NCBI GenBank assembly: GCA_020726405.1
Contig: DYSB01000001.1
Location: 7,440 to 71,439 of the forward strand
Source: Acetofilamentum sp.
GTDB taxonomy: Bacteria > CAIWAD01
DNA length: 64,000 nt
Direction of reading: 5' to 3'
Within the stretch, counting starts at the first letter, position 1. Every line of letters begins with the position of its first letter. A model generated the notes under the pieces. It saw only the letters and a program-made list of their open reading frames with translations. It did not search any database and was not told where the DNA came from. Both the position numbers and the translations under genes were made by a program. Below are positions 9,637-59,572 of this stretch, in pieces.

Positions 9637-11280
9637 TCAGATACTGCGCGCCACCAGCACAACGGTCATGATCTGGGAGGCAACCAGCAGGCCTTCCTTG
9701 AACTTCTCCCAGGCGGTGAGATCCTCCCGCGGCACCAACATCAGGGCGTCGCCGGCGGCCATTACAGTTCCCAGGGAGGCAGGGCTGAACTGGTCCTCCC
9801 CCACGTGGCGCAGGCGCAGCTCGTTGAGCCGCGCGCCACGCAGCTTGCCGCCCGCGGCTTTCAGGTAGTCGCGGACCGTCCACCCATCCCGCCAAGCCTG
9901 GACACCCGGATGCTTGACGGCGCCCAGCACCTCCACGTCGTCGGAGCGGCGCAGCACGCGGACTTCGTCGCCGTCGGCCAGAATCAGGTGCGCGGCGTCC
10001 AGGCGTCCATTCTCGTAGACCACCGACACCCTGCCGCCCTCCTGGATGACGCGGGCCTTGAGGTATTCCCGTTCGAAGCGCGAGATGTCGCTCCCCGCAC
10101 TTCGCAGCTCCGCGAAGTTCCTCTCCAAGTCCATCTCCGGCCGGCGGGTGACCTTGATGGCCATGAGCGCGGCAGACTGGCTGTCCGGCTGGGCCCACTC
10201 CAGCAATTCCGCCAACGTCGTCTGACCCGGATTGATCGCGTAGGGCCCGGGCCGCAGCACGCGTCCGTTGATGGTCACCTGTTTGGACATGTCCTGGAGG
10301 TTGTCCGCCCGCATGTAAAGGCGGTCGTAGGCTTGAATGCTGATGCCCCGGTACTCGGGGGACTGCTCACTGAAGCGCCAATTGCCGACGAAATTGCCGA
10401 AGGGATCGAAGCGCACCAGTTCGTACGCCACGCCCGTCAGGCCGATGCGCGGCCCGCCCAGAATCTCCACGATGTCCGCCGGCGTATCGCCCTCGCGGAA
10501 CTCCACTTCGTCCTGGCCTTGCCGGAAGGAGCCAAACACGCGGACGATGGAATTGCGGAAGCTGAACAGGATCCGGTCACCGCTCTCCAGCACCGGGTCC
10601 TGCTCCAGATCACCCGTGCGCAGGTATCTGAGCAGGTCCACGTGTAGAGCGCTGTCGCCGCGAACCACTTCCACGTTGCGGAAGGCCAGCGGCATTTCCT
10701 GGGCCAGGGCCGAGACCTGCTGCAGGGCGCCACTGGTGCTGGTGGAAGGCACCATCATTTGCTGAGCCGCCGCGCCACGGAAGTTGGGCAGCCAAGTGGG
10801 CGGCTTGAGCACCGTGTGCAGGCGCGTGGTGTAATTCAACTCCAGAAACCGGGGCACCAGGTCGGCGCCGCTCACCGTCACCTGGATGCGGCGGGGGCGA
10901 GCCACCCACACATCCACGGAGTCGCACCCGTACATGATGGCCAGGCGCGGTCCCAGCCTGCGACGCAGTTCCAGCAGACTCAGTCCGGCCACAGACACGC
11001 GGCCCAGACCTGGCAGTTCCAGCCGGCCGTCCGTGTCCACCAAGTCTTCCTTGCGGTTCAGATCCACGTTGAAGGCCAGATGCCCCACCAGGTCGCCGGG
11101 ACCGAGGATGTACTCCGCCGGGTCCACGGGCTGGTCCAGGATCCAGTCCGCCATGGGGGTCGCCGTGGCGCCGGAGGCGGTGGTTGTTTTCTTGATCATG
11201 CCCAGATCGAACTGGGCGACGCCCGTTCCCACCCCGGCCAGCAGGGTCAGCAGCAGCCAGCAAACCGACATTCGCCTCAT
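9637..11280 (-). CDS. polysaccharide export outer-membrane protein (Wza-like, SLBB domains)
   Basis: Signal peptide MRRMSVCWLLLTLLAGVGTGVA starts at the internal ATG (11280), whose ATGA overlaps the stop of the upstream gene. PGDLV and ILGGPRIGLTGV-type soluble-ligand-binding beta-grasp repeats typical of Wza/KpsD-family exporters. Confidence 0.8.
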   Translation of the reverse strand: MRRMSVCWLLLTLLAGVGTGVAQFDLGMIKKTTTASGATATPMADWILDQPVDPAEYILGPGDLVGHLAFNVDLNRKEDLVDTDGRLELPGLGRVSVAGLSLLELRRRLGPRLAIMYGCDSVDVWVARPRRIQVTVSGADLVPRFLELNYTTRLHTVLKPPTWLPNFRGAAAQQMMVPSTSTSGALQQVSALAQEMPLAFRNVEVVRGDSALHVDLLRYLRTGDLEQDPVLESGDRILFSFRNSIVRVFGSFRQGQDEVEFREGDTPADIVEILGGPRIGLTGVAYELVRFDPFGNFVGNWRFSEQSPEYRGISIQAYDRLYMRADNLQDMSKQVTINGRVLRPGPYAINPGQTTLAELLEWAQPDSQSAALMAIKVTRRPEMDLERNFAELRSAGSDISRFEREYLKARVIQEGGRVSVVYENGRLDAAHLILADGDEVRVLRRSDDVEVLGAVKHPGVQAWRDGWTVRDYLKAAGGKLRGARLNELRLRHVGEDQFSPASLGTVMAAGDALMLVPREDLTAWEKFKEGLLVASQIMTVVLVARSI

Positions 11281-16598: not shown

Positions 16599-16761
16599 GA
16601 GACCCCCGGATTGTCGGATCGGTGTGCGGCCGGTGCAGCCGAATCGGCGTCTCGGCACGGCTCCGTCAGTGGCCCGCGGGTGGGTGCGGGCGCCCGGCAG
16701 TGTAACGAATGGTCGGGGCCGGAGAAAGGCTGCAAGCGGCGCGGCGGGCTGCCGAACCGGC

Positions 16762-16793
16762 CGGAAACAACAAGCCCCGCCAGGGCGGGGCTT
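16762..16793 (-). terminator. intrinsic terminator 3' of tRNA-Ser
   Basis: GCCCCGC / GCGGGGC 7-bp GC stem with 4-nt loop at 16774-16791. On the minus strand it is followed by UUGUUGUUUCC. Confidence 0.55.
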
Positions 16794-16797
16794 GCGA

Positions 16798-16888
16798 CGG
16801 AGGAGGTGGGATTCGAACCCACGGTGCACAGTTAAGCACACAACGGATTTCGAGTCCGTCCGATTCAACCACTCTCGCACTCCTCCGG
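16798..16888 (-). tRNA. tRNA-Ser (anticodon CGA)
   Basis: Reverse complement: GGAGGAGUGCGAGAGUGGUUGAAUCGGACGGACUCGAAAUCCGUUGUGUGCUUAACUGUGCACCGUGGGUUCGAAUCCCACCUCCUCCG. Anticodon stem ACGGA/UCCGU with loop CUCGAAA, long variable arm, T arm GUGGG-UUCGAAU-CCCAC, 7-bp acceptor stem plus G discriminator. Confidence 0.85.
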
Positions 16889-30174: not shown

Positions 30175-32052
30175 TTACTCGTTCAATTCCGTCTGCCGCA
30201 GGCTGCGCCAGCGGTCGTAATCCGGCACCACCATCTCCGTCGCCACATCCTGGGCGCCGCTGTCGTAGGTCACGCGGAACCAGACCGGCGGCCCGCCGGA
30301 GAGGAAATTCTCGTCGTAGCGGTAGTTCTTCTGCTGATAACCGATCCAGGCCTGGCCCCAGGGTCCCACCGGGTCGCGGAAGATGAAGCCGCGGTGGGTC
30401 TGGACGATGGAGCCGCAGATGTGGATCGTCCCGCGCCGGTCGGCCAGGTCGGTGGAGCCGAGGCAGTCCGGCCGGAAGCCGCCGGGCACGTTGTCCCAGA
30501 CGGTGACGTTCTGGTTGGCCAGGCCGAAACAGCCCTCCACTTGGGGTGAGGGCGCGGGCACCGTGGCCCCCCAGGCCGTGGTCTTCCAGAATTCCGCCTC
30601 GAAACTGCAGCCCACGGCGAAAATGGCCGCGGTGATGATCACGTCCCGCCGGCCCTGGCTGCAGAGGTTGCCGATGTTGCTGTCGATGCCCGGATCGAAG
30701 TCCAGGCCACACTCCACGCCCGGGGTCAGCATGCCGTTGGCGAAGCCGTTGGCCAGCGTAGCGGCCACGATGATGTCCTTCTCGCAGGCCAGCCCGATGC
30801 GGTTGGGGCTGCCCAGCGGGACCATGCCGAAGGGCGTGTTCTCCGCGGGCGGGTCGCCCGGGCAGGGCCCCAGCACCGTGTCCTCGGTGATGATGTTGTC
30901 CATGATGAACATGCTGTCGCTGGAGAGCACGGTGACCTTGCCGCGCACGATGCCTTCCAGCCGGCAGACGCCCTTGACGTAGATCAGCTCGCGGCCCGCC
31001 CCGGTGGGCAGGTACTTGGTCTGCCAGTCCAGCCCGCCGCCGAGGACGAAGAGCGTGTCGCCCCCCGGCCCCAGGCTGTCGGCGATGTACTGGGCCACGT
31101 GGTAGCGGCTGCGGTCGAACTTGAGGTAGGTGGTCACCGGATGCTCGTTGCCGCTGTCGAGGCGGATTTTGTCCTCGTAGGTGTGGCTGGGCTGGCGCTG
31201 TTCCTTGATCTGGTCGATGGCGCGATCCGGCGGCCAGGCGATGCGCTGGTAGGGAATGATCCAGCCGCCCTGGAAGACTGACGGGTACAGGCCCTCGACC
31301 AGATTGATCACCGCCGGCTCCGTCTGGCTGAACAGGCCGTAGAAGATCGGGTTGCCCGCCGGGGACATCTCGGCGGCGCCGTTGATGTGCACGCGGCCGT
31401 AGATGCGTTCGCCCACGCCGAAGCGGACGGGGTTGCCCTCCGGGCCGATCTCGCCGTTGGAGAAATACATGAAGCGCGAGAAGTCCCCGAAGGTGACGCC
31501 CACCGCGCTGCGGTGCATGACGGAATGGTCGCGGCCCCGGTCGTCGCGCCAGGTCACCTCGCCCTGGGCGGACACGAAGTAGTAGGGCTTGGAACTGGAG
31601 ACGTCGAAGACCTTGTCCATCTTCAAATCGCGGTAGTTGAAGCGGAAGCCGTGCGCCGAATTCCCCTCCATGTAGGCATCGGCGAGGATGTCGTTGAGGT
31701 CGTTGGGCTCGATCCGGTTGTCGTTTTCGGAGCCCGCATCGGCCAGCTCCGGGTTCTGCATGAAGCGCGGCAGTCCGTGAACGGCCACGGCGTACTCCGC
31801 CGTGTAGCGGGCGTAGACCTGGGCGCGCTCGCGCATCAGCTGGAAGCGGTGCGAGCGGTTCTGCATGAAGTGCGAGGTGGCGATGCTCAGGGCCACCATG
31901 CTGAGGATGGCCGTGAGCAGCAGGATGGCCACACCACTGTCGCCCGAGGCGGCCCAGCGCAGGCTGGGACGGCGCTGCTTGAGTTCCTTCATGGCGGATT
32001 CCTCCCTCGAGGTCGGATGGAAGGCGGTTCCGGGCCGGCGGGGCGCGCTCAT
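30175..32052 (-). CDS. large membrane-anchored pilus-locus protein with Cys-rich C-terminal domain (PilY1-position analogue?)
   Basis: 625 aa. Chosen over the overlapping Arg/Gly-rich alternative frame 30152..32062. ATGA overlap with the upstream pilin-like gene at 32049-32052. N-terminal TM (GVAILLLTAILSMVALSIATS); the last ~200 aa hold ~8 Cys (GPCPGD, GLACEKD, VECGLD, GNLCSQG, RPDCLG, HICGS). Confidence 0.65.
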   Translation of the reverse strand: MSAPRRPGTAFHPTSREESAMKELKQRRPSLRWAASGDSGVAILLLTAILSMVALSIATSHFMQNRSHRFQLMRERAQVYARYTAEYAVAVHGLPRFMQNPELADAGSENDNRIEPNDLNDILADAYMEGNSAHGFRFNYRDLKMDKVFDVSSSKPYYFVSAQGEVTWRDDRGRDHSVMHRSAVGVTFGDFSRFMYFSNGEIGPEGNPVRFGVGERIYGRVHINGAAEMSPAGNPIFYGLFSQTEPAVINLVEGLYPSVFQGGWIIPYQRIAWPPDRAIDQIKEQRQPSHTYEDKIRLDSGNEHPVTTYLKFDRSRYHVAQYIADSLGPGGDTLFVLGGGLDWQTKYLPTGAGRELIYVKGVCRLEGIVRGKVTVLSSDSMFIMDNIITEDTVLGPCPGDPPAENTPFGMVPLGSPNRIGLACEKDIIVAATLANGFANGMLTPGVECGLDFDPGIDSNIGNLCSQGRRDVIITAAIFAVGCSFEAEFWKTTAWGATVPAPSPQVEGCFGLANQNVTVWDNVPGGFRPDCLGSTDLADRRGTIHICGSIVQTHRGFIFRDPVGPWGQAWIGYQQKNYRYDENFLSGGPPVWFRVTYDSGAQDVATEMVVPDYDRWRSLRQTELNE

Positions 32053-32690
32053 TCCCCATCACCGAGGTTTTGCTGACGCATTTCCTGGATGTGCTTGTTG
32101 GGAACCGTGACGATGCGGCGGAAGGAGCGGCTGACCCGCTGCTCCTGCTCCCGATCCTCCACCTCCAGGGTCAGCAGCACTTCCGTCAGGATGTTGGTGA
32201 TGCGCGAATTGACGAAGGGCCGATCTTGATAGGGCCGCAGGCGGAAGTCCGTCACGTAGACGCGGAAGCGCTTGCCGTTGTTGATGCGCGGATCCAGCTG
32301 GGGGGGCGGAAAGTCGTCGATCCATTCCGGCCGGATGCCATTGTGCTGGATGATCACCTTGCGCTCGCCCTCCCGCGAGAGGGCGGTTTCCACCTGGCGG
32401 CCGGTGTTGAAGGAGCCCAGAAAGTTGAACTCGATGTCCTCCTTGGCCCGTCCGCCGGCATTGGCGTTGCGGGTGACCTCATGGGCCGCGCCGAAGGAGT
32501 CGCAGGCTTCGGTCAGGATCTGGTCCGCGTAGAAGTGGAGGTCGTTGAGGATCTTGTCGCGGGCCATCTGGCGGGCCTGGACGATCAACACGGTGGTCAG
32601 GCCCAGCACCATGACGCCCATCATGGAGATGGAGACCATCAGCTCCATCAGGTAGATGCCCCGCTCGGAACGCAGTCGACAGGGCTTCAT
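32049..32690 (-). CDS. type IV pilin-like protein (minor pilin), paralogue 1
   Basis: Starts at the internal ATG (32690): MKPCRLRSERG|IYLMELMVSISMMGVMVLGLTTVLIV. This is the prepilin peptidase motif (Gly, then Glu at +5, then a hydrophobic helix). The track's upstream extension is junk. Confidence 0.75.
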   Translation of the reverse strand: MKPCRLRSERGIYLMELMVSISMMGVMVLGLTTVLIVQARQMARDKILNDLHFYADQILTEACDSFGAAHEVTRNANAGGRAKEDIEFNFLGSFNTGRQVETALSREGERKVIIQHNGIRPEWIDDFPPPQLDPRINNGKRFRVYVTDFRLRPYQDRPFVNSRITNILTEVLLTLEVEDREQEQRVSRSFRRIVTVPNKHIQEMRQQNLGDGE

Positions 32691-33439
32691 GTGGACTCCC
32701 CTCTGACCCTGGACGGGTCGAATGAGCGGTTGAAGCGGTTCGTGGGGGGCCACAAGGCCGTATTGGGCCGGAGACGGTCCCGCTGCTCGCGCTCGCGTTC
32801 CCAGAGCGGGGTGCGCAGGCGCAGCAGGGCGGCGTTGGGCAGGGAGACCACGCGGCGGTACTCCCGGCTCAGGCGCTGACCGTTGTCGCGGTCCTCCAGC
32901 TCCAGCACCAGCCGGAGCTCCACCAGATCCTGCCAGAGCACGTAGGGCATGTGCCACTGGCGGTCCGGGTAATCGCCCACCGTCAGCTCCCGCACGCTGA
33001 CGCGCTGGCGCCGGCCATTGCCGCGCCGGGGATCCAGTTCGGCCGGCGGGAAGTCGTTGCACCAGTCCAGCCGCTGATTGTTGCGCAGGATCAGCACGTT
33101 GCGCCGCTGATTGAGCAGCAGGCGGGTCTCCAGGGTGCGGCCCAGGTTTCGGTAGGCGATGCCGCGGAACTCCAGCTCCTCCGAAAAGCGGGCACCGGTC
33201 AAGCTGTTGGGCAGCACGCGGCTGGCCTGGGCGGCGGCGGCGGCGGCTTCATCCAGCACGGCGTCGGCGTAGAAATACAGGTCGGTGAGCACTTTGTCCT
33301 GGGCCAGCTGCCGCGCTTGAACCACCAGCAGGGTGGCCATGCCCAGCACAACCACGCCGAGGAGCGCCACACCGGCCAGCATCTCCACCAGGGAGACACC
33401 GGCGTCGGAGCGCTGCGGAGCGTGGAGCCTCATGGTCAT
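32687..33439 (-). CDS. type IV pilin-like protein (minor pilin), paralogue 2
   Basis: MTMRLHAPQRSDAG|VSLVEMLAGVALLGVVVLGMATLLVV, again G/xxxxE. Shares QARQ(M/L)A(R/Q)DK(I/V)L(N/T)DL(H/Y)FYAD with paralogue 1, so it is a tandem duplicate. Confidence 0.75.
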   Translation of the reverse strand: MTMRLHAPQRSDAGVSLVEMLAGVALLGVVVLGMATLLVVQARQLAQDKVLTDLYFYADAVLDEAAAAAAQASRVLPNSLTGARFSEELEFRGIAYRNLGRTLETRLLLNQRRNVLILRNNQRLDWCNDFPPAELDPRRGNGRRQRVSVRELTVGDYPDRQWHMPYVLWQDLVELRLVLELEDRDNGQRLSREYRRVVSLPNAALLRLRTPLWEREREQRDRLRPNTALWPPTNRFNRSFDPSRVRGEST

Positions 33440-50484: not shown

Positions 50485-51075
50485 CTACCGGTTGCCACCA
50501 GCAGGTCTGTCGTCGGGCGGCGGGCCCGTGGCGATGAGATACTTGGAGAAGTGTTCGAGGCGGACGTCCACGCGGGCTTCCTCGTCCGCGCTCATCCAGT
50601 GCACCTCGTTGGACACCACTTCATACCAGCCATCCTGGAGGTCGTAGACCACCAGCAGTTCGTCGCCAGCGGGCAGGTCGGCTTCGCTGAGCGGCAGCAC
50701 CAGCTCGAATTCCAGCGGCGCCAGAAATTCCTGGCCCTCCGGCCCGAACTCGAAGCCGATGGCCGGCGTGGCTTCGTCGCCCTGCCAGTTGGCTACGATG
50801 GTCACCGGCGCGCTCACCGCACCGGCCGGCGCCTTCAAACTGAAGCCCGCACCCGTGTACTCGGACGCCGCGCCCGGAGTCACCACCAAGGTGAAATCCG
50901 TCATGGCATCCAGGTCGTGGGCTTTGGCGGGGAGGTCCGCCGGCGTGAGCAGGCGGATTTGGTCGCGGGACAGCAGCCGTCCGCTCGACTCAGGCGCACG
51001 GCTCCCGTCAGTGGAGCAACCGAGCGCGAGAAGCAGGGCCAGACCGGCTGCACCAAGGGGCAGGAAGCGTCTCAT
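50485..51075 (-). CDS. lipoprotein of unknown function (paralogue A)
   Basis: MRRFLPLGAAGLALLLALGCS lipobox (internal ATG at 51075). Acidic beta-rich body. C-terminus HFSKYLIATGPPPD is shared with the neighbouring paralogue. Confidence 0.7.
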   Translation of the reverse strand: MRRFLPLGAAGLALLLALGCSTDGSRAPESSGRLLSRDQIRLLTPADLPAKAHDLDAMTDFTLVVTPGAASEYTGAGFSLKAPAGAVSAPVTIVANWQGDEATPAIGFEFGPEGQEFLAPLEFELVLPLSEADLPAGDELLVVYDLQDGWYEVVSNEVHWMSADEEARVDVRLEHFSKYLIATGPPPDDRPAGGNR

Positions 51076-51223
51076 GAACACCTCGTTCTGTTGTGGGGTG
51101 GTACAACTGCTTGCTCCGGAGGACACGTCCTCAGTGGAACGCTCAGAGTTTAGTCAACGAGGTGGCTGGGAAAAAGCAAAAAGTGTGTAAAAAACAACTA
51201 CTTGCTCTCAGAAACAGGAAAGA

Positions 51224-51245
51224 CCCGTTCCAGGTGAGGAACGGG
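51224..51245 (-). terminator. hairpin plus U-rich tail 3' of lipoprotein paralogue B
   Basis: CCCGTTCC-AGGTGA-GGAACGGG. On the minus strand it is followed by CUUUCCUGUUUCUG. Confidence 0.4.
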
Positions 51246-51270
51246 CCAGGCAATGCGGCGCGGGTTTCGG

Positions 51271-51866
51271 TCAGCGCGTGGTGGTGTTGTCCGGCGGCGG
51301 GCCGGTGGCGATCAGGTAGCGGCAGAAATGGTCGATCTCGGCCCGGATCTTGACTCCGTGGGGATTGTCCAGATCCCCCTCCGGCATCGCTTCCACGACA
51401 CTGGGAATGATCTCATAGGTGCCATCCTCGTGATCGAGCACCACCAACAGGCAAGCTGGATCCAGCCCTTCCAGATCGCGCGCCTTGAGTTTAAACTCCA
51501 CCTGCAGGGGCAGCAAGAACTCCTGCAAGAACTCCAGGCCGTCGGGACCGTAGTTGTAGCCGATGACCGGATTCTCGTTCTCATCCCCCAACCAGTCGCC
51601 CGTGATGGTGGCTTCCTGGCCAACGCAGCCCCGCGGGGCACGCAGACGGAAGCCCGGCAGATCCAGCGCGGCCGATCGCTGGGGGGTCAAGTCCAGGCTG
51701 AAGTCGCCGCCCAGGTCCGCGTTCATATCCTTGGCAACCGCTGGTACCAGGATCTGCAGCTGATCGGCCTGCAGCAGTCGGGTGGCGGGTTCGTCGTCGG
51801 TGTTGGCGCAACCGCTGAAGAAGGCAGGGGCAACAGCAGCGCGAGCAAGTATCTGGGGTGACTCAT
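51271..51866 (-). pseudogene. lipoprotein paralogue B, disrupted by a -1 frameshift between signal peptide and mature domain
   Basis: ATG at 51866 (AAGGAA RBS) encodes MSHPRYLLALLLPLPSSAVA... then stops after 47 codons. The lipobox and mature domain (FFSGCANTDDEPATRLLQADQLQIL...DHFCRYLIATGPPPD) continue in the -1 frame and align well to paralogue A. No start codon exists in that frame upstream of the lipobox. The switch lies near a CCCC run. Confidence 0.55.
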
Positions 51867-52100
51867 CGGTCTGTTCCTTCGTTTAGGATTCCTACCCGTC
51901 CTCGCTGCAGACTGAGGCCAATGTCGTGCCAGAAAACTCCTGCCATATGCTTTCCACACCGTAAGGATACTTCACGACTAGAGCTGGGCCGGTCCCCATT
52001 TCGGTGCATTTACCCCACCCAATCCCGTTTGCTGGCAATTGACGCACCAAGAAAACGGGCGGCCCGGGCCGCCCGCTTCACATGCTGTTGCTGATTGCGC

Positions 52101-52556
52101 TCAGTTGCCTTCCAGCACGCGCTCGTCGTACTCGGCCTCGAAGCGCCGCTTGTGCAGGCCCTCCTCCTCTGCCAGGCGCTCGAAGAGCGCGCGCAGGGAA
52201 TCGCCGGGCGCCACGCGGGCCAGATCCAGGTAGAGCTGGCGGGCCGCCGCCTCGCGCTTCATGGCCACGATCAGGGCCTGGGCGTAGTCCAGGTCGGTGG
52301 TGATCTCCGGCATCTCCACATAGTCGGAGATCTTCAGGTCCGCGAAGGCGGCCGCCGCGGCCTGTTCGAAACCGCCCTGGTCGCGCACGGCGATCAGCCG
52401 GTCGCGGTGGCTCTTCTCTTCCTCGGCCATCTCCAGCAGGGCGTCGCGCATCTCGCGCCTCTGCATCTTCACCGAGAGCTGGGTGTAGAAGCGCGCGGCC
52501 TCGATCTCCCGCTTGATGGCGAAGTTCAGGGCCTCTTCGGCGTTGGCGAATTGCAT
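52101..52556 (-). CDS. rubrerythrin/ferritin-like diiron protein
   Basis: 151 aa, all-helical, with paired E-x-x-H-like motifs (EMAEEEKSHRDRL ... AEEEGLHKRRFEAEYDE). Confidence 0.65.
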   Translation of the reverse strand: MQFANAEEALNFAIKREIEAARFYTQLSVKMQRREMRDALLEMAEEEKSHRDRLIAVRDQGGFEQAAAAAFADLKISDYVEMPEITTDLDYAQALIVAMKREAAARQLYLDLARVAPGDSLRALFERLAEEEGLHKRRFEAEYDERVLEGN

Positions 52557-52602
52557 CGGTCGATCTCCTGCCTGCTCGCTTCTACTACATCAACCCGAGA
52601 CT

Positions 52603-52713
52603 CAACACAGAGACACAGCATCAGAGATGGCTTGGAAACGAATCGGATCCTGCACTTTCCGCCGCGCCTGTTTCTCATTCAATCTTCGTCTCTGTGCCTC
52701 TGTGCCTCTGTGG
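52603..52713. repeat. diverged third copy of the palindromic intergenic repeat (CACAGAG/CTCTGTG arms) with an 8-bp tandem repeat
   Basis: Left arm AACACAGAGACACAGCATCAGAGA (52604-52627). Right arm AATCTTCGTCTCTGTGCCTCTGTGCCTCTGTGG (52681-52713), containing TCTGTGCC x2.9. Arm ends AACAC...ATCAG and ATCTTCGT match copy A (AACACGAAGACGAATCAG and GATCTTCGT). Lies 26 nt 3' of the nfnB stop and ~45 nt 5' of the rubrerythrin start. Confidence 0.45.
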
Positions 52714-52741
52714 TGAGAGGCCTCCCCCGGTCGAATCCCCC

Positions 52742-54181
52742 TCAGGCGGCGGATCCTTCCTTGCCCATCAGGTCCTCGTGGATGGCCAGGGCCGCGCTCT
52801 TGCCAGCGCCCATGGCCAGGATCACCGTCGCCGCGCCGATCACGATGTCGCCGCCAGCGTAGACGCCGGGCATGCTCGTGCGGCCCGTGCTGTCCTCGGC
52901 CACAATGTTGCCCCACTTGTTGAGCTTCAGTTCGGGCGTGACCTCGGTTAGCAGCGGGTTGGCCCCGTTGCCGATGCTGACCACCACCGTGTCCGCTTCC
53001 ACCACGAATTCGCTGCCCTCCACGGGCACCGGCCGGCGCCGCCCACTGGCGTCGGGCTCGCCCAGCTCCATGCGCAGGCAGGTCACGCCGCTCACGTTGC
53101 CCTGGCCGTCCCCCAGGATGTTGACCGGGTTGCAGAGCAGGCGCATGTGGATGCCCTCCTCCTCGGCGTGGTGGATCTCCTCGCGCCGGGCGGGCATCTC
53201 CTCCATCGAGCGCCGGTAGATGACGCTGACTTCCGCGGCGCCCAGGCGCAGCGCGGTGCGGGCCGCGTCCATGGCCACGTTGCCGCCGCCGAAGACGGCC
53301 ACCCGCTGACCGGGCCGGACGGGCGTGTCGTTGCGGGGAAAATCGTAGGCCTTCATCAGGTTGACGCGGGTGAGATATTCGTTGGCGCTGTAGACGCCGT
53401 TGAGGTTCTCCCCGGGGATGTTCATGAAGTAGGGCAGGCCGGCGCCCAGGCCCAGGAAGACGGCCTGGAAGCCCTCCTCCTCCAGCAGCTCCTGGACGGT
53501 GATCATCTTGCCGATCACGGCATTGTAGACGATCTCCACGCCCAGTTTGCGCACGTAGTCCACCTCCGCCTCCACGATGTCCTTGGGCAGGCGGAATTCG
53601 GGGATGCCGTACATCAGCACGCCGCCGGGCTTGTGCAGCGCCTCGAAGATGGTCACCGAGTGGCCGCGCAGGGCCAGTTCGCCAGCCACCGTCAGGCCGG
53701 CCGGCCCGCTGCCCACCACGGCGATGCGCTTGCCTGTGGACGGGGCCAATGCCGGGGCCTTGACCTCGCCCTGCTCGCGCTCCCAGTCGGCCGCGAAGCG
53801 CTCCAGCCGGCCGATGGCCACGGGCGTGTGCTTGCGGCCCACCACGCAGACCTGCTCGCATTGGGTCTCCTGGGGGCAGACCCGGCCGCAGACGGCGGGC
53901 AGGGCGTTGTCGTGCTTGATCAGGTCGATGGCGCCCTGGAAATCGCCCTGGCGGATCTTCACCACGAAGCCGCGGATGTCGATGCCCACCGGGCAGCCCT
54001 GGATGCAGGCGGGATCCTTGCACTCCAGGCAGCGGCTGGCCTCCACCATGGCCGTCTCCGGCGAATAGCCGATGGGCACCTCGAGAAAATTGCGGGCCCG
54101 CACCTGGGGATCCTGCTCGGGCATGGGCTGCCGCGTCACGGCGCCTAGTTTGGCCTTGGGCAGGGCGGCGTACTCGCTCAT
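52742..54181 (-). CDS. NADPH-dependent glutamate-synthase-beta-like oxidoreductase, large subunit (NfnB/SudA/GltD family)
   Basis: Start MSEYAALPK (internal, 54181). N-terminal 2x[4Fe-4S] Cys motifs (CLECKDPACIQGCP, CGRVCPQETQCEQVC). FAD and NAD(P) Rossmann folds (VAVVGSGPAGL, VAVFGGGNVAMD). Confidence 0.85.
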   Translation of the reverse strand: MSEYAALPKAKLGAVTRQPMPEQDPQVRARNFLEVPIGYSPETAMVEASRCLECKDPACIQGCPVGIDIRGFVVKIRQGDFQGAIDLIKHDNALPAVCGRVCPQETQCEQVCVVGRKHTPVAIGRLERFAADWEREQGEVKAPALAPSTGKRIAVVGSGPAGLTVAGELALRGHSVTIFEALHKPGGVLMYGIPEFRLPKDIVEAEVDYVRKLGVEIVYNAVIGKMITVQELLEEEGFQAVFLGLGAGLPYFMNIPGENLNGVYSANEYLTRVNLMKAYDFPRNDTPVRPGQRVAVFGGGNVAMDAARTALRLGAAEVSVIYRRSMEEMPARREEIHHAEEEGIHMRLLCNPVNILGDGQGNVSGVTCLRMELGEPDASGRRRPVPVEGSEFVVEADTVVVSIGNGANPLLTEVTPELKLNKWGNIVAEDSTGRTSMPGVYAGGDIVIGAATVILAMGAGKSAALAIHEDLMGKEGSAA

Positions 54182-55050
54182 GACGTCCTCCCGGCATAGG
54201 GCTGGTCGCGGCCGATGTGGCAGACGTGGTCGGCCTCGAGGGCCTGGCGTTCCTGGGTCAGATAGGCGCGCTGGCGCTGCTGCAGCTCGGCGAAATCCAC
54301 CGCGTGGCCGTCGAATTCCGGGCCGTCCACGCAGACGAAGCGGCTGCGGCCGTCCACTGTCACGCGGCAGCCGCCGCACATGCCCGTGCCATCCACCATG
54401 GTGGCGTTGAGGCTGACCACCGTGGGAATGCCGTGGGCGCGGGTGACTTCGCTCACCGCGCGCATCATCACCACCGGGCCGATGGCCACCACCTCGTGGA
54501 TGGTCTCGCCGCGGTCGATGAGATCCTGCAGCACGTTGGTGACGAAGCCCTGGCGGCCCTTGCTGCCGTCGTCCGTGCAGATCAGCAGCTCGTCGCTGGT
54601 GGCGCCCATCTCATCTTCCATGATCAGCAGCTCGGCCGTGCGGGCGCCGAGGATCGAAATCACGCGGTTGCCCGCGGCCTTCATGGCGCAGGCGATGGGA
54701 TGGACCGGCGCGGTGCCGATGCCGCCGCCCACGCAGACCACCGTGCCCTTGTTCTCGATGTGGGTGGGGCGACCCAGCGGTCCGGCCAGGTCGAGGATGG
54801 AGTCCCCCACCTCCAGGCGGCCCAGCTCCAGGGTGGAGTGGCCGACTTCCTGGAAGATCAGGCGGATCCAGCCCGCCTCCGGATCGGCGTCGGCAATGGT
54901 GAGCGGAATGCGCTCGCCCGTTTCGCTGACCCGCAGCATGACGAACTGGCCGGCCTGGCGCTTCCGGGCGATGCGCGGAGTTTCCACCAGCAGGTCCTTC
55001 ACGCCGGGCGAGAGGATCCGTTTGCGTAGAATTTTGTTCATGTTCTCCAT
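54178..55050 (-). CDS. FAD/NAD(P)-binding [2Fe-2S] oxidoreductase small subunit (PyrK/NfnA/SudB-like)
   Basis: 290 aa with a ferredoxin-NADP reductase-like fold and C-terminal GMCGGCRV Cys cluster. Stop overlaps the start of the large subunit. Confidence 0.85.
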   Translation of the reverse strand: MENMNKILRKRILSPGVKDLLVETPRIARKRQAGQFVMLRVSETGERIPLTIADADPEAGWIRLIFQEVGHSTLELGRLEVGDSILDLAGPLGRPTHIENKGTVVCVGGGIGTAPVHPIACAMKAAGNRVISILGARTAELLIMEDEMGATSDELLICTDDGSKGRQGFVTNVLQDLIDRGETIHEVVAIGPVVMMRAVSEVTRAHGIPTVVSLNATMVDGTGMCGGCRVTVDGRSRFVCVDGPEFDGHAVDFAELQQRQRAYLTQERQALEADHVCHIGRDQPYAGRTS

Positions 55051-55340
55051 CCGTATATGGGGCGTCCTGCGGAAAAGATTAACAGCTACCGGGCGGAACT
55101 CAAAGCTCCCAGGAGACTGTTTTGCCTTTGAACTACATGCGCGCCCGCTCCGCCGGCCCTCCCGACCTCAACCTGTGCGCCTTGACATTCAATTGGCAAT
55201 CTGGCGGGAGATCAATCCGGCCGCAGAGTTGTGTTGGAAATCTACCATGAATTCCCAACCGAATGACCCCGACCCAACTGATCTGCCTCCACTGAATCCA
55301 CCCCCTGCTTTGGTCGATAGGACGGGGAAAGGAGCACGCC

Positions 55341-56125
55341 ATGAGCCAGATCCTGCGCATCCGCCTGGAAAGCCAAGGTCCCCGTGTCCTGCGCGGACGA
55401 CGGGCCGAACGCCGGCACGCGCATCCTCCCATCCAGCCGGAGGGCCGCAGCTCCACCTACGAGCTGGGCATGTATGACGTCCAGGGCCGTGAGCGCACCC
55501 TCTTGGTGACCGGCAACCCGCTGCGCAATCGTCAGGGCGGGATCGTCGGCTCCTTCGGCGTGCTCAAGGACATCACCGAGCGCAAGGCCCGGGAGCAGGC
55601 CCTGGAGACGCGCCTGCTGCTGGACCAGGCCGTCTCGGATCCGTCCGGGCCCTGGTGCGGCCGGGGCAATTCGCCGAGGCCCTGAACGTGGCCCTGGGAG
55701 GCCTGGGCATCCTGCTCAACGCCGACTGCGTGCGTGTGTACCAGCTGAATCCGGCCCGGCACGAACTGAGCTGCACCCAGGAGTGGCCGCCCCTGCGCGG
55801 CGAGCGCAGCGTGCTGGGACGCCCCTTCTCCGCGGGCCACTATCAGTGGTGGATGTCATCCTTGCGCAGCGGCGAGATCCTCTACATCAAGCAGCTGAGC
55901 GACGTCCCCGCCACGGCCACCGAGGAGCGGGAGACGATGGAGGCGCTGGCCATCCGCAGCCTGCTGGCCATCCCCCTGCTGCAGAACGGCGTCCTGCTGG
56001 GCTTCGTTTCGCTGGAGAATCCCGATCCCTTCGGCGAAGTGTTGAGCGGCGACCTGGGCAGCCTGCTGGTGTTCGGCGACGTGCTGGCCGCCGCCCTGGC
56101 CCAGCGCGAGCCATCGTCGGCCTGA
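55341..56125 (+). pseudogene. PAS-GAF sensory-domain remnant, frameshifted, with no output domain
   Basis: ORF 55341..55685 holds only the C-terminal half of a PAS fold (YELGMYDVQGRERTLLVTG...GIVGSFGVLKDITERKAREQALE). A GAF-like segment continues in the -1 frame (55655..56125: ...LLGFVSLENPDPFGEVL). No kinase or other output domain follows. Confidence 0.5.
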
Positions 56126-56327
56126 TCAGCGCCCGGTTACCCGGCCAGTTGTCAACTCTTATCTTGGACTATAATGGTTCAAGATCAATCTTCGTCGGCC
56201 CGGCAGGGCCGAGCCTGCCCGGCGCAGCGACGCCTGCCAACACGGGCGACTCCGGCCATGAGCAATGGCCTGACGGGACCACTCCTGCCGCTGGACCGAC
56301 CCCCAGTGGCCCCGCAGGAGGTGTGAG

Positions 56328-57024
56328 ATGTGGCCCTTCCTGATCGTCCACTGGTTCACCTCGCTGTTCTTCCAGACCTTCTACCATCACCGCTACGCGT
56401 CGCATCAAATGTTCAGCCTGACGCCGCGCACGGAGCGCGTGATCCACGTGCTGGCCTTCCTGGCCCAGAGTCCGTCCTTCCTCTAACCCCCGGGCCTACG
56501 CCATCCTGCACCGCCAGCACCACGCCTACAGCGACACGGCGCGCGACCCGCACAGCCCCGTCCGGCACCGCACGGTGATCGGCATGCTGCGCGACACCCT
56601 GACCCACTTCGACGCGGCCCGCCGGCGGGACAACCCCGAGATGGAGCGCCTGGCCGCCCACACGCCGGACTGGCCGGCCTTCGACCGCTTCGCGGACACC
56701 TGGACCACGCGCATCGCGTTGGGCGGCGTCTGGACACTTGTCTACCTGCTCTGGGCGCCCTCTCCCTGGTGGCTGCTGGCCCTGCCTGTCCACTGGCTGA
56801 TGGGGCCGATCCACGGCGCCATCGTCAACTGGGCGGGCCACAAGTACGGCTACGTCAACCACGGGGACACGGACGACCATTCCCGCAACACGCTGCCCGT
56901 GGACCTGCTGCTGCTGGGGGAACTCTACCAGAACCACCACCACCACGCGCCCACCCGGCTGAACTTCGCCCACCGCTGGTTCGAGCTGGATCCGGCCTAC
57001 TGGATCATCCGGCTGCTGGGCTGA
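56328..57024 (+). pseudogene. fatty-acid desaturase (membrane diiron, His-box family) interrupted by +1 frameshift and in-frame TAA
   Basis: ATG 56328 with AGGAGG RBS. His box 1 (FYHHRYASH), then TAA at 56484-56486 after 52 codons. The +1 frame continues through His box 2 (ILHRQHHAYSDTARDPHSP) and His box 3 (YQNHHHHAPTRLN) to 57024. Removing one nucleotide near CTCTAACCCCC would restore ...SPSFSNPRAYAILHRQHH. Confidence 0.6.
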
Positions 57025-57077
57025 CTGGGCGTGGTGCGGGCCCGACCCGGCGCCCGGTGAACCGCAGGGCGTCCCTG

Positions 57078-57113
57078 CAAAGAAAAAGCGGGGCGCGCTT
57101 CCGCGCACCCCGC
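57078..57113 (-). terminator. intrinsic terminator 3' of OMP paralogue 1
   Basis: Minus strand: GCGGGGUGCGCG-GAAG-CGCGCCCCGC followed by UUUUUCUUUG. Confidence 0.65.
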
Positions 57114-57139
57114 CTGGGTCCAACCGGCTGGACTGCCGC

Positions 57140-58192
57140 TTAGATCTTGAACTCGAAGTTGACGCGATAGTACGTCACCGCGTCTCGGTCGGAATCTTCA
57201 AAACTGGTCAGCCGCAGGTTGGGCGCGATGACCAGGCCCTTCACCGGGGACAACTTCACGCCCGCCAGGATGGTGGTCTCGTTGTTCTCGTCATCAGAGT
57301 CCGTGTCGGGGTCGTAGCGATCCAGCCGGGTGAAGGCCTCGAGGCCCGCCACCGGCAACTTGTAGTTGACCGTCACGCCCAGGATACTCTGGACCACGTC
57401 CGTCGCCCCCGTGGTGGTCTTGGTGTCATACTCCAGGCCCAGCCGAGCGCCCATTCCGGCCCAGCCTCCGAAGAGGCCCAGGACGGTCTTGTTCTCCACA
57501 TCATCCGCCGCCTGGAAGGGCTCCAGCGAGTAGGCCACGCCCGCGTTCCAGCCGTCCTTCTTGTTCAGCGCCTGCTCGCCGACGGACAGGTTGACTGAGT
57601 ACTTCTTGAATCGATCGTTCTCGGCCTTTTTGTAGCCACCCCCGTTGGCAATCATCGCGCTGGCCTTCACCAAGCCGAAATCCCTGCCCCAGCGCATGCC
57701 CAGGTCGGCGCTGCAGACGAAGTCGTGGGCGTCCATCAACGGCAGGTCCAGGAAACGGTTGCAGAAGGTGGCGTCCTGGGTGTAGTTCAGGTTGGTGGGC
57801 TGCACGCCGAATGTCCAGGTGCCCCAGTCCGTGCTCCAGTCCACGCAGGCATTCTTCACGTAGAGGTAGAAGCCCGCGTTCGAGCTGCTCAGGCTGTAGG
57901 TGTTGACGTCCACCACGTCGCCGTCGGAGTCCGTGAGCGTCGTGCTGCCGCTGGCCAGCGTGTAGCTCTTCAGCTGGCCGGCGTCGAACTGCACGCGGTA
58001 GGCCAGGTTGTCCGCTGGCTTGTCCGTCACGGTCAGGTAACTGCGGACGAAGTTGAATGCCCCGTCGCTGGTCCCGCCCTGGGTGGCATCATGGGTGTAG
58101 TCGAAGTAGATCAGGCTGCTGATGTCCGCCGCCAACAGGCCGCCTGCGGCCATGGACGAGAACACGACACTCAAGAGAATGCGCTTGGTCAT
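57140..58192 (-). CDS. outer-membrane beta-barrel protein of unknown function (paralogue 1, intact)
   Basis: 350 aa. Signal MTKRILLSVVFSSMAAGGLLAA. Alternating-hydrophobic beta composition rich in G/Y/T/N/D. C-terminal aromatic signature YYRVNFEFKI. Confidence 0.75.
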   Translation of the reverse strand: MTKRILLSVVFSSMAAGGLLAADISSLIYFDYTHDATQGGTSDGAFNFVRSYLTVTDKPADNLAYRVQFDAGQLKSYTLASGSTTLTDSDGDVVDVNTYSLSSSNAGFYLYVKNACVDWSTDWGTWTFGVQPTNLNYTQDATFCNRFLDLPLMDAHDFVCSADLGMRWGRDFGLVKASAMIANGGGYKKAENDRFKKYSVNLSVGEQALNKKDGWNAGVAYSLEPFQAADDVENKTVLGLFGGWAGMGARLGLEYDTKTTTGATDVVQSILGVTVNYKLPVAGLEAFTRLDRYDPDTDSDDENNETTILAGVKLSPVKGLVIAPNLRLTSFEDSDRDAVTYYRVNFEFKI

Positions 58193-58410
58193 GGTCGGCT
58201 CCTTTGTGGATGGGTGAGTTAGAATCCTGTTAAGCGCTCAGTCCCACCAGTTATCGGCAGAACTGTGGCCAATCTTCCAACCGCACGAATCCCGGTGGAA
58301 GCACCGGGCCAGGAGGCCGATTCCGGCACCTCCGTCCACAGGCAACAGGGAAACGCTCCCCCTCCCGCTCCCTGCCAGGGCCGGCCCGCCCGCCGCGCAA
58401 GGCTGGACGC

Positions 58411-58420
58411 GGGGGGGGGG
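58411..58420. repeat. homopolymeric G10 tract (C10 on the gene strand) in the OMP intergenic region
   Basis: gggggggggg at 58411-58420 flanked by c on both sides. ~220 bp upstream of the OMP paralogue 1 start and ~100 bp 3' of the degraded OMP paralogue 2. Confidence 0.9.
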
Positions 58421-58465
58421 CGAAAACTGCCCAGTGGAGGTGGCGGCCCGGCCGGACACACGAAC

Positions 58466-58489
58466 GGGGTGCGCGTCGCCGCGCACCCC
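58466..58489 (-). terminator. 10-bp GC hairpin 3' of OMP paralogue 2 (duplicate of the paralogue-1 terminator stem)
   Basis: GGGGTGCGCG-TCGC-CGCGCACCCC. The same GGGGUGCGCG...CGCGC(A)CCCC stem occurs in the terminator after paralogue 1. Confidence 0.45.
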
Positions 58490-58519
58490 GCAAGGCAATC
58501 GGACGGATCCGGCTGTGCG

Positions 58520-59527
58520 TCAGATCTTCAATTCGAAGTTGATCCGGTAGTAGGTCAGGGCGTCGCGGTCGGAGTCCTCGTAGGGAATGGTCTTCAGGTT
58601 CGGGGCGATGATCAGGCCCTTCACTGGCGCGTACTTCAGACCCAGGATGATCCCCGTCTCGTTGTTCTTGCTCTCGTCCAGGGGCGTGCCGGCGTTGTCG
58701 GTCACGTCGTCCGTGTTGGGATCGTATATGTCCAGGCTGCCGAAAACGGACAGGCCGGGGCGAAGGAGAGTTTGTAGTCGCCGTAGAGGCCGATGATCTG
58801 CTCGGTCAGGTCGGTGGCGCCCGTGGTGGTCTTGGTGTCGAACTCGGCCCCCATGCGCACACCCATGCCCGCCCAGCCGCCGAACAAACCCAGCACGGCC
58901 CGACCATCGTCGGCGTTGATGGCCTCGGTGCTGAAGGCCAGGCCGGCGTTCCACCCGTCGTTCTTGCCCAGGGCGGGTTCGCCGGCCACCAGCTGCAGGC
59001 TGAGCTTCTTGTACTTGTCGTCCTCGGCCTTCTTGTAGCCCACGCCGTTGGTGAACAGCAGGCTGGCCTGAATCAGCCCACCAAACCCGTTGCCGTAGCC
59101 GATGCCCAGTCCGCGCTGCTGGAGAAGCCGTTGGCATCCATCAGGGGCTTGGCCAGGACCGGTAACCCGAGGTGTTCTCCTGCACGTTGAACATGTTCAT
59201 GCCCTGCATGCCGAAGGTGAACTTGCCGTAGTCGGTCATCCAGTCCACGCAGGCGTTCTTGAGGAAGACTTCGAGGAACTTGTCGTTGTCGTCGGCCCCG
59301 TCCTTCATCCGCCCGACGTCGAACTGCAGCTTGTAGGACAGGTTGTCCGCCGGCTTGTCCGTGATCGTCAGGTAGGCGCGGGTGGTCTCGAAGGAACTGT
59401 CCTAGTCAACGCCTTGCGTGGCGTTGTGGGTGTATTCGTAGAAGATCAGGCTGCTGATCTCCGCCGCAACGGCACTGCCGGCGGCCAGGGTCGCGCTGGC
59501 GACACACACGAGTAAGCGATTGGTCAT
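58520..59527 (-). pseudogene. outer-membrane beta-barrel protein paralogue 2, degraded (in-frame amber plus frameshifts)
   Basis: ATG 59527 with AAGGAG RBS. MTNRLLVCVASATLAAGSAVAAEISSLIFYEYTHNATQGVD, then TAG at codon 42 (59402-59404). Homology to paralogue 1 continues in pieces across three frames (e.g. 58702..59043 GYKKAEDDKYKK...GLFGGWAGMG; 58520.. ...YAPVKGLIIAPNLKTIPYEDSDRDALTYYRINFELKI). Confidence 0.6.
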
Positions 59528-59572
59528 GGTCGACTCCTTGGTCAACGGGTGATTCAAGCTCCGCTTCGTCGG

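Follow-up and report, generated by a model that had tools for sequence, protein, structure and literature searches.

Why do four genes read as broken within about 9 kb of an otherwise ordinary stretch of bacterial DNA? The stretch, called the window here, comprises 64,000 nucleotides of Acetofilamentum sp. (assembly GCA_020726405.1, contig DYSB01000001.1), and the four genes encode a lipoprotein (lipoB), a PAS-GAF sensor, a fatty-acid desaturase and an outer-membrane protein (OMP2). Such breaks could be errors of sequencing or assembly, functional interruptions, or true pseudogenes left by recent duplication or by some wider loss. We found that all four are real pseudogenes, and very probably they are the visible remains of a larger, lineage-specific gene loss in one interval of unstable structure. 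They belong to one species-level population of an uncultured bacterium related to Candidatus Delongbacteria; the window has a G+C content of about 66% and a strong third-position GC signal.

Four genes are disrupted at the same bases in separate assemblies

The lesions were placed by nucleotide alignment to intact orthologues from a sister species, while gene order was read from the listing of open reading frames (ORFs) and a three-frame translation of 50.4-59.6 kb. As reference we used a Candidatus Delongbacteria metagenome-assembled genome (MAG), contig Ga0172380_10000012 (427 kb; its loci are labelled L020, L023 and L030), which is syntenic with the window at a DNA identity of about 90-95%. 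The sister order is lipoA, lipoB, Rbr, gltD and dhodB, followed by five genes, PAS-GAF, another five genes, the desaturase, two OMP genes and phoU; the PAS-GAF (311 aa) and lipoprotein (194 aa) homologues both lie on this contig. Comparison with related genomes, proposed as a check in the preliminary description of this DNA, confirmed each of the four disruptions where that description had put it, the sister orthologues being undamaged and in unchanged order:

51271..51866, minus strand: lipoB pseudogene, with a 1-nt deletion (GG to G) between 51826 and 51825
55452..56125, plus strand: PAS-GAF pseudogene remnant (C-terminal half of PAS, linker, GAF), with a 1-nt deletion between 55639 and 55640
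56328..57060, plus strand: short delta-9-type acyl-CoA desaturase pseudogene, with a +1 insertion near 56480 leading to TAA at 56484-56486
58520..59527, minus strand: OMP2 pseudogene in four pieces, with TAG at 59402-59404 (codon 42) and three 1-nt deletions

Nine point lesions (seven single-base indels and two stops) and one 5' truncation were mapped to the base. Six of the seven indels are 1-nt deletions, and only one lies inside a homopolymer run. Two of the breaks had been assigned earlier to CCCC and CCCCC runs, which proved mistaken: the CCCC beside the lipoB lesion and the CCCCC beside the desaturase lesion are unchanged, and the single indel within a run belongs to OMP2.

Exact look-up of window proteins in public assemblies located the same locus in separately assembled contigs of SRR404261, SRR407182, SRR1560064, SRR1560850 and SRR17737360 and in MAG GCA_973787295.1; two of these runs are sulfidic cave-biofilm libraries from Frasassi/Acquasanta Terme (PMC4288042). 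The contigs are 99.8-100% identical to the window and carry identical lesions with zero gaps at any of them, and gene callers split the genes alike in each assembly. The assemblies differ by a single indel: in the SRR404261 strain (L001), the third His box of the desaturase is expanded by 6 bp of CAC repeat. Protein identity to the intact orthologues is 92% for the desaturase, 86% for PAS-GAF, 72% for OMP2 and 61% for lipoB, and a search of 5.8 billion proteins gave no intact allele above these values for the desaturase, PAS-GAF or lipoB, all closer entries being fragments. Since the same breaks occur in five separately assembled runs and one MAG without gap differences, and intact orthologues stand in synteny in the sister species, the four loci are real pseudogenes rather than sequencing or assembly errors, the former being one of the two readings that the preliminary description had put forward.

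The view that an error-prone region produced the breaks and that all four genes are intact could draw on two facts: most lesions are single-base indels, one of them within a C run, and short-read contigs break near a tract of ten C (C10) at 58411-58420. We consider it extremely unlikely. Besides the recurrence of identical, ungapped lesions, one lesion is a substitution (the TAG), OMP2 carries four lesions and the neighbouring OMP1 none, and the PAS-GAF substitutions are raised and flat over codon positions, unlike errors; moreover, large deletions with remnants of the lost genes are present in the same interval.

Functional interruption, by programmed ribosomal frameshifting, stop-codon read-through or reversible phase variation of envelope genes, is hardly credible at all. 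OMP2 and lipoB do encode surface or envelope proteins, a class that is often phase-variable, one OMP2 indel falls in a C run, and the C10 tract lies upstream of OMP1. Nevertheless, OMP2 would need read-through plus three shifts, the sister orthologues are each encoded in one frame, and reading of the sequences showed no slippery X XXY YYZ heptamer at any lesion. The length of every site is constant among the assemblies, and the indels affect runs of 1-5 bases, which are too short for efficient slippage. Thus neither a slippery site nor a long simple repeat, whether conserved or variable in length, was found at the lesions.

Deletions reduced the PAS-GAF gene and removed its upstream neighbours

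The PAS-GAF remnant is preceded by the following features:

55124..55201, no strand: scar of deletion D1, an unaligned filler of 78 bp where the sister has 6.95 kb
55204..55266, plus strand: Gcw_chp remnant, final 20 codons and stop (AGDQSGRRVVLEIYHEFPTE and stop in the window, LAGDQSGRRIVLEILRQFPND and stop in the sister)
55341..55448, plus strand: first 36 codons of a small Arg-rich ORF, which has 61 aa in the sister and is conserved in L020, L031 and L013

The bounds of D1 were obtained by blastn, with L020 3-2722 matching window 52420-55123 and L020 9671-9918 matching window 55202-55448. Within the missing segment of about 6.95 kb, between dhodB and PAS-GAF, the sister encodes a CHASE4 kinase, a hybrid kinase, a response regulator-EAL protein and most of Gcw_chp. 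A second deletion of 332 bp took the end of the small ORF and the first ~83 PAS-GAF codons, and joined the small ORF in frame to PAS-GAF codon ~85; its junction is an 8-bp direct repeat, AGGGCCGC, at 55441-55448. This in-frame fusion accounts for the 114-aa ORF at 55341-55685. Because remnants of Gcw_chp and of the small ORF survive, both differences are deletions in the window lineage.

The PAS-GAF gene had been described as split by a -1 shift and as lacking an output domain. The shift stands, being the loss of one C at 55639/55640, but the missing output domain is no sign of decay: intact homologues of 306-311 aa consist of PAS and GAF domains only. In the fragment ORF region including the fused small ORF (55341-56125, plus strand), Pfam matched the full GAF domain but only profile positions 74-109 of 110 of PAS_4. 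The window copy thus lacks the complete PAS that goes with GAF in a stand-alone PAS-GAF protein, and is a remnant of the family rather than a functional member of it. The remnant is 86% identical to the intact 311-aa homologue P0132. With substitutions polarised by a third genome as outgroup, here and for the other genes, the window branch received 37 and the sister branch 13 (p = 0.001), in even proportions at the three codon positions. On this evidence PAS-GAF reads as the oldest relic.

The small ORF was seen in its own right as a conserved element. Encoding 53-65 aa (MSQILRIR...HGRRA...REGPLW) with no Pfam match, it stands directly upstream of PAS-GAF or of the desaturase in four lineages (window 55341-55448; L020:9811-9996; L031:1843-2004; L013:7116-7313).

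A desaturase pseudogene next to a putative lipid operon, probably deleted

One further scar separates the PAS-GAF remnant from the desaturase:

56126..56286, no strand: scar of deletion D3, keeping the promoter-like motif CTCTTATCTTGGACTATAATGGTTCAA at 56156-56182

In the sister, the ~4.7 kb between PAS-GAF and the desaturase holds genes for DUF2878, DUF1295, amine-oxidase-family, DUF1365 and CFA-synthase-family proteins, and from window position 56287 onwards the sequence matches the sister again, beginning with the final ~40 nt of the CFA-synthase gene. Given the retained promoter motif and these ~40 nt, the 4.7-kb difference is probably a deletion in the window lineage. When the 78-bp and 159-bp fillers were searched for remnants of deleted genes, nothing significant was found beyond the promoter motif and the CFA-synthase 3' end.

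The motif itself, CTTATCTTGGAC-TATAAT-GGTTCAA, is AT-rich and precedes either the lipid operon or the desaturase in each of three lineages (window 56156-56182; L020 about 11048-11075; L013 about 7515-7540), with a perfect TATAAT in a 66% G+C genome. Its conservation suggests that it is likely a promoter or operator; a sigma-70 promoter scan of the region returned no match under its spacing rule.

The +1 shift and TAA reported for the desaturase were borne out, and a further, polymorphic stop that had gone unnoticed lies at 57022-57024, where TGA reads GGA in the L001 (SRR404261) strain. The C-terminal fragment matches Pfam FA_desaturase (PF00487) with 40.2 bits against a cut-off of 29.7. Once repaired, the sequence aligns end to end with intact orthologues of 242-243 aa at up to 92% identity, and over its full length with more than 3000 homologues of about 242-250 aa. 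The His boxes HHRYASH, HRQHH and QNHHHH are invariant in a 10-sequence alignment, except for N203H in the third box of the window copy. In L001, the CAC expansion at window 56931-56932 turns QNHHHH into a His run, replacing the Q and N that are invariant in that alignment; it may reflect continued decay, or else the short repeat may have been misassembled.

Substitutions in the desaturase numbered 19 on the window branch and 22 on the sister branch, and 15 of the 19 were at third positions. This absence of acceleration and the bias to third positions fit a very recent inactivation. The pseudogene is still changing within the population, as the CAC expansion and the GGA in place of the stop TGA in L001 show.

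Two tandem envelope pairs each kept one member

The other two pseudogenes each have an intact tandem partner, and the elements of these pairs are listed below, with omega as the ratio of nonsynonymous to synonymous substitution rates (dN/dS):

50485..51075, minus strand: lipoA, intact lipoprotein gene of 196 aa, the conserved tandem member, with lipobox LALGC read from the sequence
57086..57115, minus strand: intrinsic terminator of OMP1, a 13-bp stem with a T run after it, located where the desaturase and OMP1 genes converge
57140..58192, minus strand: OMP1, intact outer-membrane porin-like gene of 350 aa, 91% identical to its sister orthologue, omega 0.17
58463..58491, minus strand: hairpin after OMP2, without a T run, sharing the arm GCGGGGTGCGCG with the OMP1 terminator; the same hairpin is found in the sister

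In lipoB, one G is missing from CTGGCC at codon 14, a signal-peptide position from which the lipobox Cys is 5 codons further on. This agrees with the -1 frameshift noted earlier, and it parts the start codon and the n- and h-regions of the signal peptide from the lipobox FFSGC and the mature protein. The intact orthologue is the 194-aa P0122 (L023:10001-10585; 61% protein identity), and in all six assemblies only a 151-aa 3' ORF was called. Judged by eye against the usual lipobox rule, the pattern is present in lipoA (MRRFLPLGAAGLALLLALGC), repaired lipoB (MSHPRYLLALLLPLAFFSGC) and P0122 (MRHPKYLLALVLPLAFFSGC). Pfam and NCBIfam gave no match for lipoA or lipoB, which belong to a small family without assigned function (11 search hits). 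Compared with its sister orthologue, lipoA is 94% identical in nucleotides and 96% in protein, without indels, and it is followed by a terminator-like hairpin at 50464-50440.

For OMP2, the amber codon described earlier at codon 42 was found as stated, whereas the two further frame breaks turned out to be three. A tblastn search with OMP1 and its relatives runs over the OMP2 region in frames 1, 3, 2 and 1, hence three frame changes in addition to the in-frame TAG, and the 1-nt deletions lie at 59160/59159, 59109/59108 and 58757-58760 (C5 to C4). A surface loop is also shortened by a net 69 nt (23 codons). The intact sister orthologue has 358 aa, while fragments of 41, 55, 113 and 61 aa are called in three other covering assemblies.

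The dN/dS check suggested earlier was carried out, and the decayed copies gave higher ratios than their partners (lipoB 0.41 vs lipoA 0.09; OMP2 0.69 vs OMP1 0.17). Both decayed copies are fast on both branches, with 65 substitutions in the window and 71 in the sister for lipoB, and 78 and 75 nucleotide substitutions for OMP2. In each pair, the lost copy was already weakly constrained and fast-evolving.

The earlier reading of both pairs was that of recent duplication followed by degeneration of the redundant copy. Two observations speak for it: lipoB and OMP2 each have an intact tandem paralogue, and the hairpins of the two OMP genes share a 12-nt arm, GCGGGGTGCGCG, whose exact occurrences in the window are confined to the sites after these genes. 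The shared arm was thus correctly seen as a duplicated stem, but the hairpin is present in the sister species as well and is no sign of recent duplication. We rejected the recent origin of the pairs, which is very improbable, because the paralogues are far less alike than the orthologues. The lipoA protein is 96% identical to its orthologue and about 39-42% to lipoB, and OMP1 is 91% identical to its orthologue and 57% to OMP2 (about 51-57% over comparisons), the reverse of what recent tandem duplicates would give. Nucleotide repeats between the paired copies reach just 71-81%. The sister species has undamaged copies of all four genes, as does the more distant L032 of the two lipoprotein genes. 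In the tree, OMP1 groups with its orthologue at 100% support, apart from OMP2, and OMP1 and OMP2 are as distant from each other as homologues from different lineages are. The decayed OMP2 is also the phoU-side copy, holding the place of the single OMP gene in the relatives L013 and L031.

OMP2 differs along its length. Its 3' third (58520-58800) is ~97-98% identical to the sister (L020:17926-19002) and its 5' two-thirds (58800-59527) ~75%, with many loop indels, a mosaic pattern that suggests recombination at the locus. A LaPlata bin holds two versions of the phoU-OMP locus, one (L010) with two OMP genes and another (L011) with one mosaic OMP gene. The C10 tract (minus strand), beside which two short-read contigs end, is situated between OMP2 and OMP1, ~220 nt ahead of the OMP1 start codon, and is C7 in the sister; it is the sole G/C homopolymer of at least 8 bases in the 64 kb (three overlapping 8-mer matches, all within it, vs a mean of ~12 in shuffles). 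Two other assemblies cover the whole tract, and its length is the same in both.

The OMP family is uncharacterised and comprises 365 clusters at 50% identity. OMP1 itself gave no match to Pfam or NCBIfam, a profile of 10 close homologues gave none to Protein Data Bank (PDB) sequences, and AlphaFold on the single OMP1 sequence returned an unusable model (mean predicted local distance difference test score, pLDDT, 30.4). On the other hand, 26 of 78 family members match Pfam Porin_O_P (PF07396; best E = 1.9e-7), and the profile of the 78 sequences matches OprP (2o4v; E = 1.8e-4 over about 100 residues). We infer that these proteins are distant relatives of the phosphate-selective porin O/P proteins, at the level of the superfamily only; a porin-like assignment fits the position of the OMP genes after pstSCAB-phoU. 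In a scan of representative genomes, OMP1 found matches only in the LaPlata bin and an Aminicenantes outlier.

Within the window, the losses fall in a hotspot of gene-content change

The affected interval is bounded by the gltD/dhodB genes and the pst-phoU operon, with the pseudogenes at 51.2-59.6 kb of the window. The intact neighbours are:

52101-52556, minus strand: rubrerythrin-like gene
52742-54181, minus strand: gltD-like gene
54178-55050, minus strand: dhodB-like gene
after OMP2 (58520-59527) in the window gene order: phoU and pstBAC

That the other window genes are clean, as first described, was upheld. Third-position GC (GC3) frame analysis and the ORF listing of the rest of the window revealed no further split gene, and 30 orthologue pairs with the sister, covering window 14-36 kb, 41.5-51 kb, 52-55 kb and 59.5-61.4 kb, contain no frame-breaking indel or stop (omega 0.02-0.37); apparent exceptions were high-GC shadow-ORF extensions or in-frame alignment artefacts. 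By our own count, the scan probability of 4 pseudogenes within 8 consecutive genes of ~55 is ~0.005, for an interval chosen post hoc. Relative to the sister, the interval lost about 12 kb and roughly ten genes through three deletions, the 4.7-kb one being probable, so that the point lesions are the smaller part of the change.

The relatives differ here as well. L013 has an 8-gene insert and a single OMP gene, L032 has a 5-gene insert beside lipoB, L031 and the LaPlata bin keep only DUF1295 of the lipid operon, and the OMP copy number among relatives is 1 or 2. Since every relative examined differs in it, gene content across the clade changes with particular frequency in this interval, which we call a hotspot.

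Relaxed constraint after inactivation was seen for PAS-GAF and was absent for the desaturase, while lipoB and OMP2 are fast in both lineages and so give no date. About 7 of 23 variant events within the population fall in the pseudogenes, which make up ~14% of the sequence, a suggestive value only.

A proposed course of the losses

Taking the observed lesions, their recurrence, the intact orthologues, the deletions and the rate patterns together, we propose that two processes met in this interval. The first would be the domino decay of one unit, which in the sister order consists of the small ORF, PAS-GAF, the five-gene lipid-modification operon and the delta-9 desaturase. PAS-GAF would have been struck first, by the 332-bp deletion between 8-bp repeats with the frameshift before or after it, followed by fast, unconstrained substitution. 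The five operon genes may then have gone in one deletion, which would have left the desaturase stranded behind the operon promoter region, to be inactivated very recently and to gather strain-variable damage. The neighbouring signalling cluster (CHASE4 kinase, hybrid kinase, response regulator-EAL, Gcw_chp) would have been removed by the 7-kb deletion. In the second process, the weakly constrained member of each of two ancient envelope tandem pairs (lipoB and OMP2) would have been lost, and the conserved lipoA and OMP1 retained. PAS-GAF presumably regulated the operon, the operon presumably modified membrane lipids, and the losses would reflect relaxed selection rather than being selected.

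Several points weigh against this account. The evidence consists of assembled contigs, so minor intact alleles may exist in the population, and several runs may sample one cave population, in which case they are separate sequencing efforts but not separate lineages. The clustering was scored post hoc, in one 64-kb window. In L013, too, the promoter motif is followed directly by the desaturase, and the 4.7-kb difference could instead be an insertion in the sister lineage. The rate tests for OMP2 disagree, with protein substitutions higher on the window branch (38 vs 18) and nucleotide substitutions nearly equal. Finally, PAS-GAF, the small ORF and the operon are tied together in function by gene order only.

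Selection could have driven the losses instead, with oxygen-dependent lipid enzymes, a sensor and exposed envelope proteins shed for life in a sulfidic, oxygen-poor biofilm or for escape from phages or predators. The lost functions are coherent (desaturase, CFA-synthase/DUF1365/amine-oxidase-type enzymes, PAS-GAF, cyclic di-GMP signalling, porin and lipoprotein), the population occurs in sulfidic cave biofilms, and lipoB and OMP2 evolve fast in both lineages. We regard selection as unlikely, although it deserves a place: nothing here separates adaptive from neutral loss, but the lesions differ in age, which fits gradual decay better than one sweep. Equally tentative is a narrower proposal, in which one oxygen-linked regulon (small ORF, PAS-GAF sensor, furan/cyclopropane-type fatty-acid operon and delta-9 desaturase) would be undergoing coordinated, ongoing dismantling in a lineage adapting to sulfidic, oxygen-poor cave biofilms. 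The sensor would have gone first and the operon after it; the desaturase, still polymorphic today, would have been the last to go, and the small ORF would have become fused to PAS as a by-product of deletion.

In annotation, the four loci should be marked as pseudogenes, not "corrected", and the public fragment ORFs (such as the 145-aa GAF, 151-aa lipoprotein and 158-aa desaturase pieces) are relics. The locus further draws attention to a module that is conserved and uncharacterised (small ORF, PAS-GAF and lipid-modification operon) and to a porin family beside pst-phoU in a little-known phylum.

Other observations in the window

Sister-species DNA identity is uneven, ~95.5% at window 14-36 kb and ~87-94% at 41-61 kb, possibly from recombination along the chromosome. 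Beside tRNA-Ser (window 16796-16887), the sister has an extra gene for a 452-aa membrane protein (L030:18905-20263) where the window has only 129 bp (16634-16762), a difference that leaves no pseudogene. Tandem paralogues with a prepilin-like hydrophobic N-terminus at 32049-33439 (minus strand) are both intact, neither copy having decayed. An Rfam scan of the window found two tRNAs and nothing else.

Comparison with known systems

UfaD is an amine-oxidase-type flavoprotein. In the furan/methylated fatty-acid operon of Rhodobacter sphaeroides and Rhodopseudomonas palustris, UfaM is an S-adenosylmethionine (SAM)-dependent methylase and UfaO carries DUF1365 (PMC7380195). Like ufaM, ufaD and ufaO, the sister operon encodes a CFA-synthase-family methyltransferase, an amine-oxidase-family flavoprotein and a DUF1365 protein, as compared by precomputed Pfam labels only. 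In contrast to the Ufa operon, the sister unit includes a delta-9 desaturase as well as DUF2878 and DUF1295, and the gene ahead of it is PAS-GAF in place of a sigma-E/ChrR regulator pair. The apparent resemblance of the deleted operon to furan-fatty-acid genes is therefore offered as a lead.

The window OMP genes lie directly downstream of pstSCAB-phoU, a likeness to OprP/OprO (PF07396), but the proteins of this family have 320-360 aa against the 411-residue OprP chain. The desaturase shares the three His boxes of short delta-9 desaturases (PF00487, ~245 aa), and differs from them in being frameshifted, cut by a second stop and altered by N203H in the third box.

Clustered pseudogenes together with deletional gene loss are familiar from the reductive genome evolution of host-restricted or niche-specialised bacteria under relaxed selection. 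The window resembles such genomes in its single-base indels, nonsense mutations and deletion bias (six of seven indels, and three larger deletions), in having one deletion between short direct repeats, in the loss of regulators and envelope genes, and in the adjoining lesions of mixed age. It differs in that the damage is limited to one interval of an otherwise intact 64-kb window, that no insertion-sequence elements take part, and that the coding density and selection of the neighbours are normal. The locus is a new instance of a well-known process, lineage-specific gene loss, with no new mechanism, and it provides a small, datable example of how one interval of a free-living uncultured bacterium can lose a presumed regulator, its operon and envelope genes that were redundant, the undamaged sister genome serving as reference.

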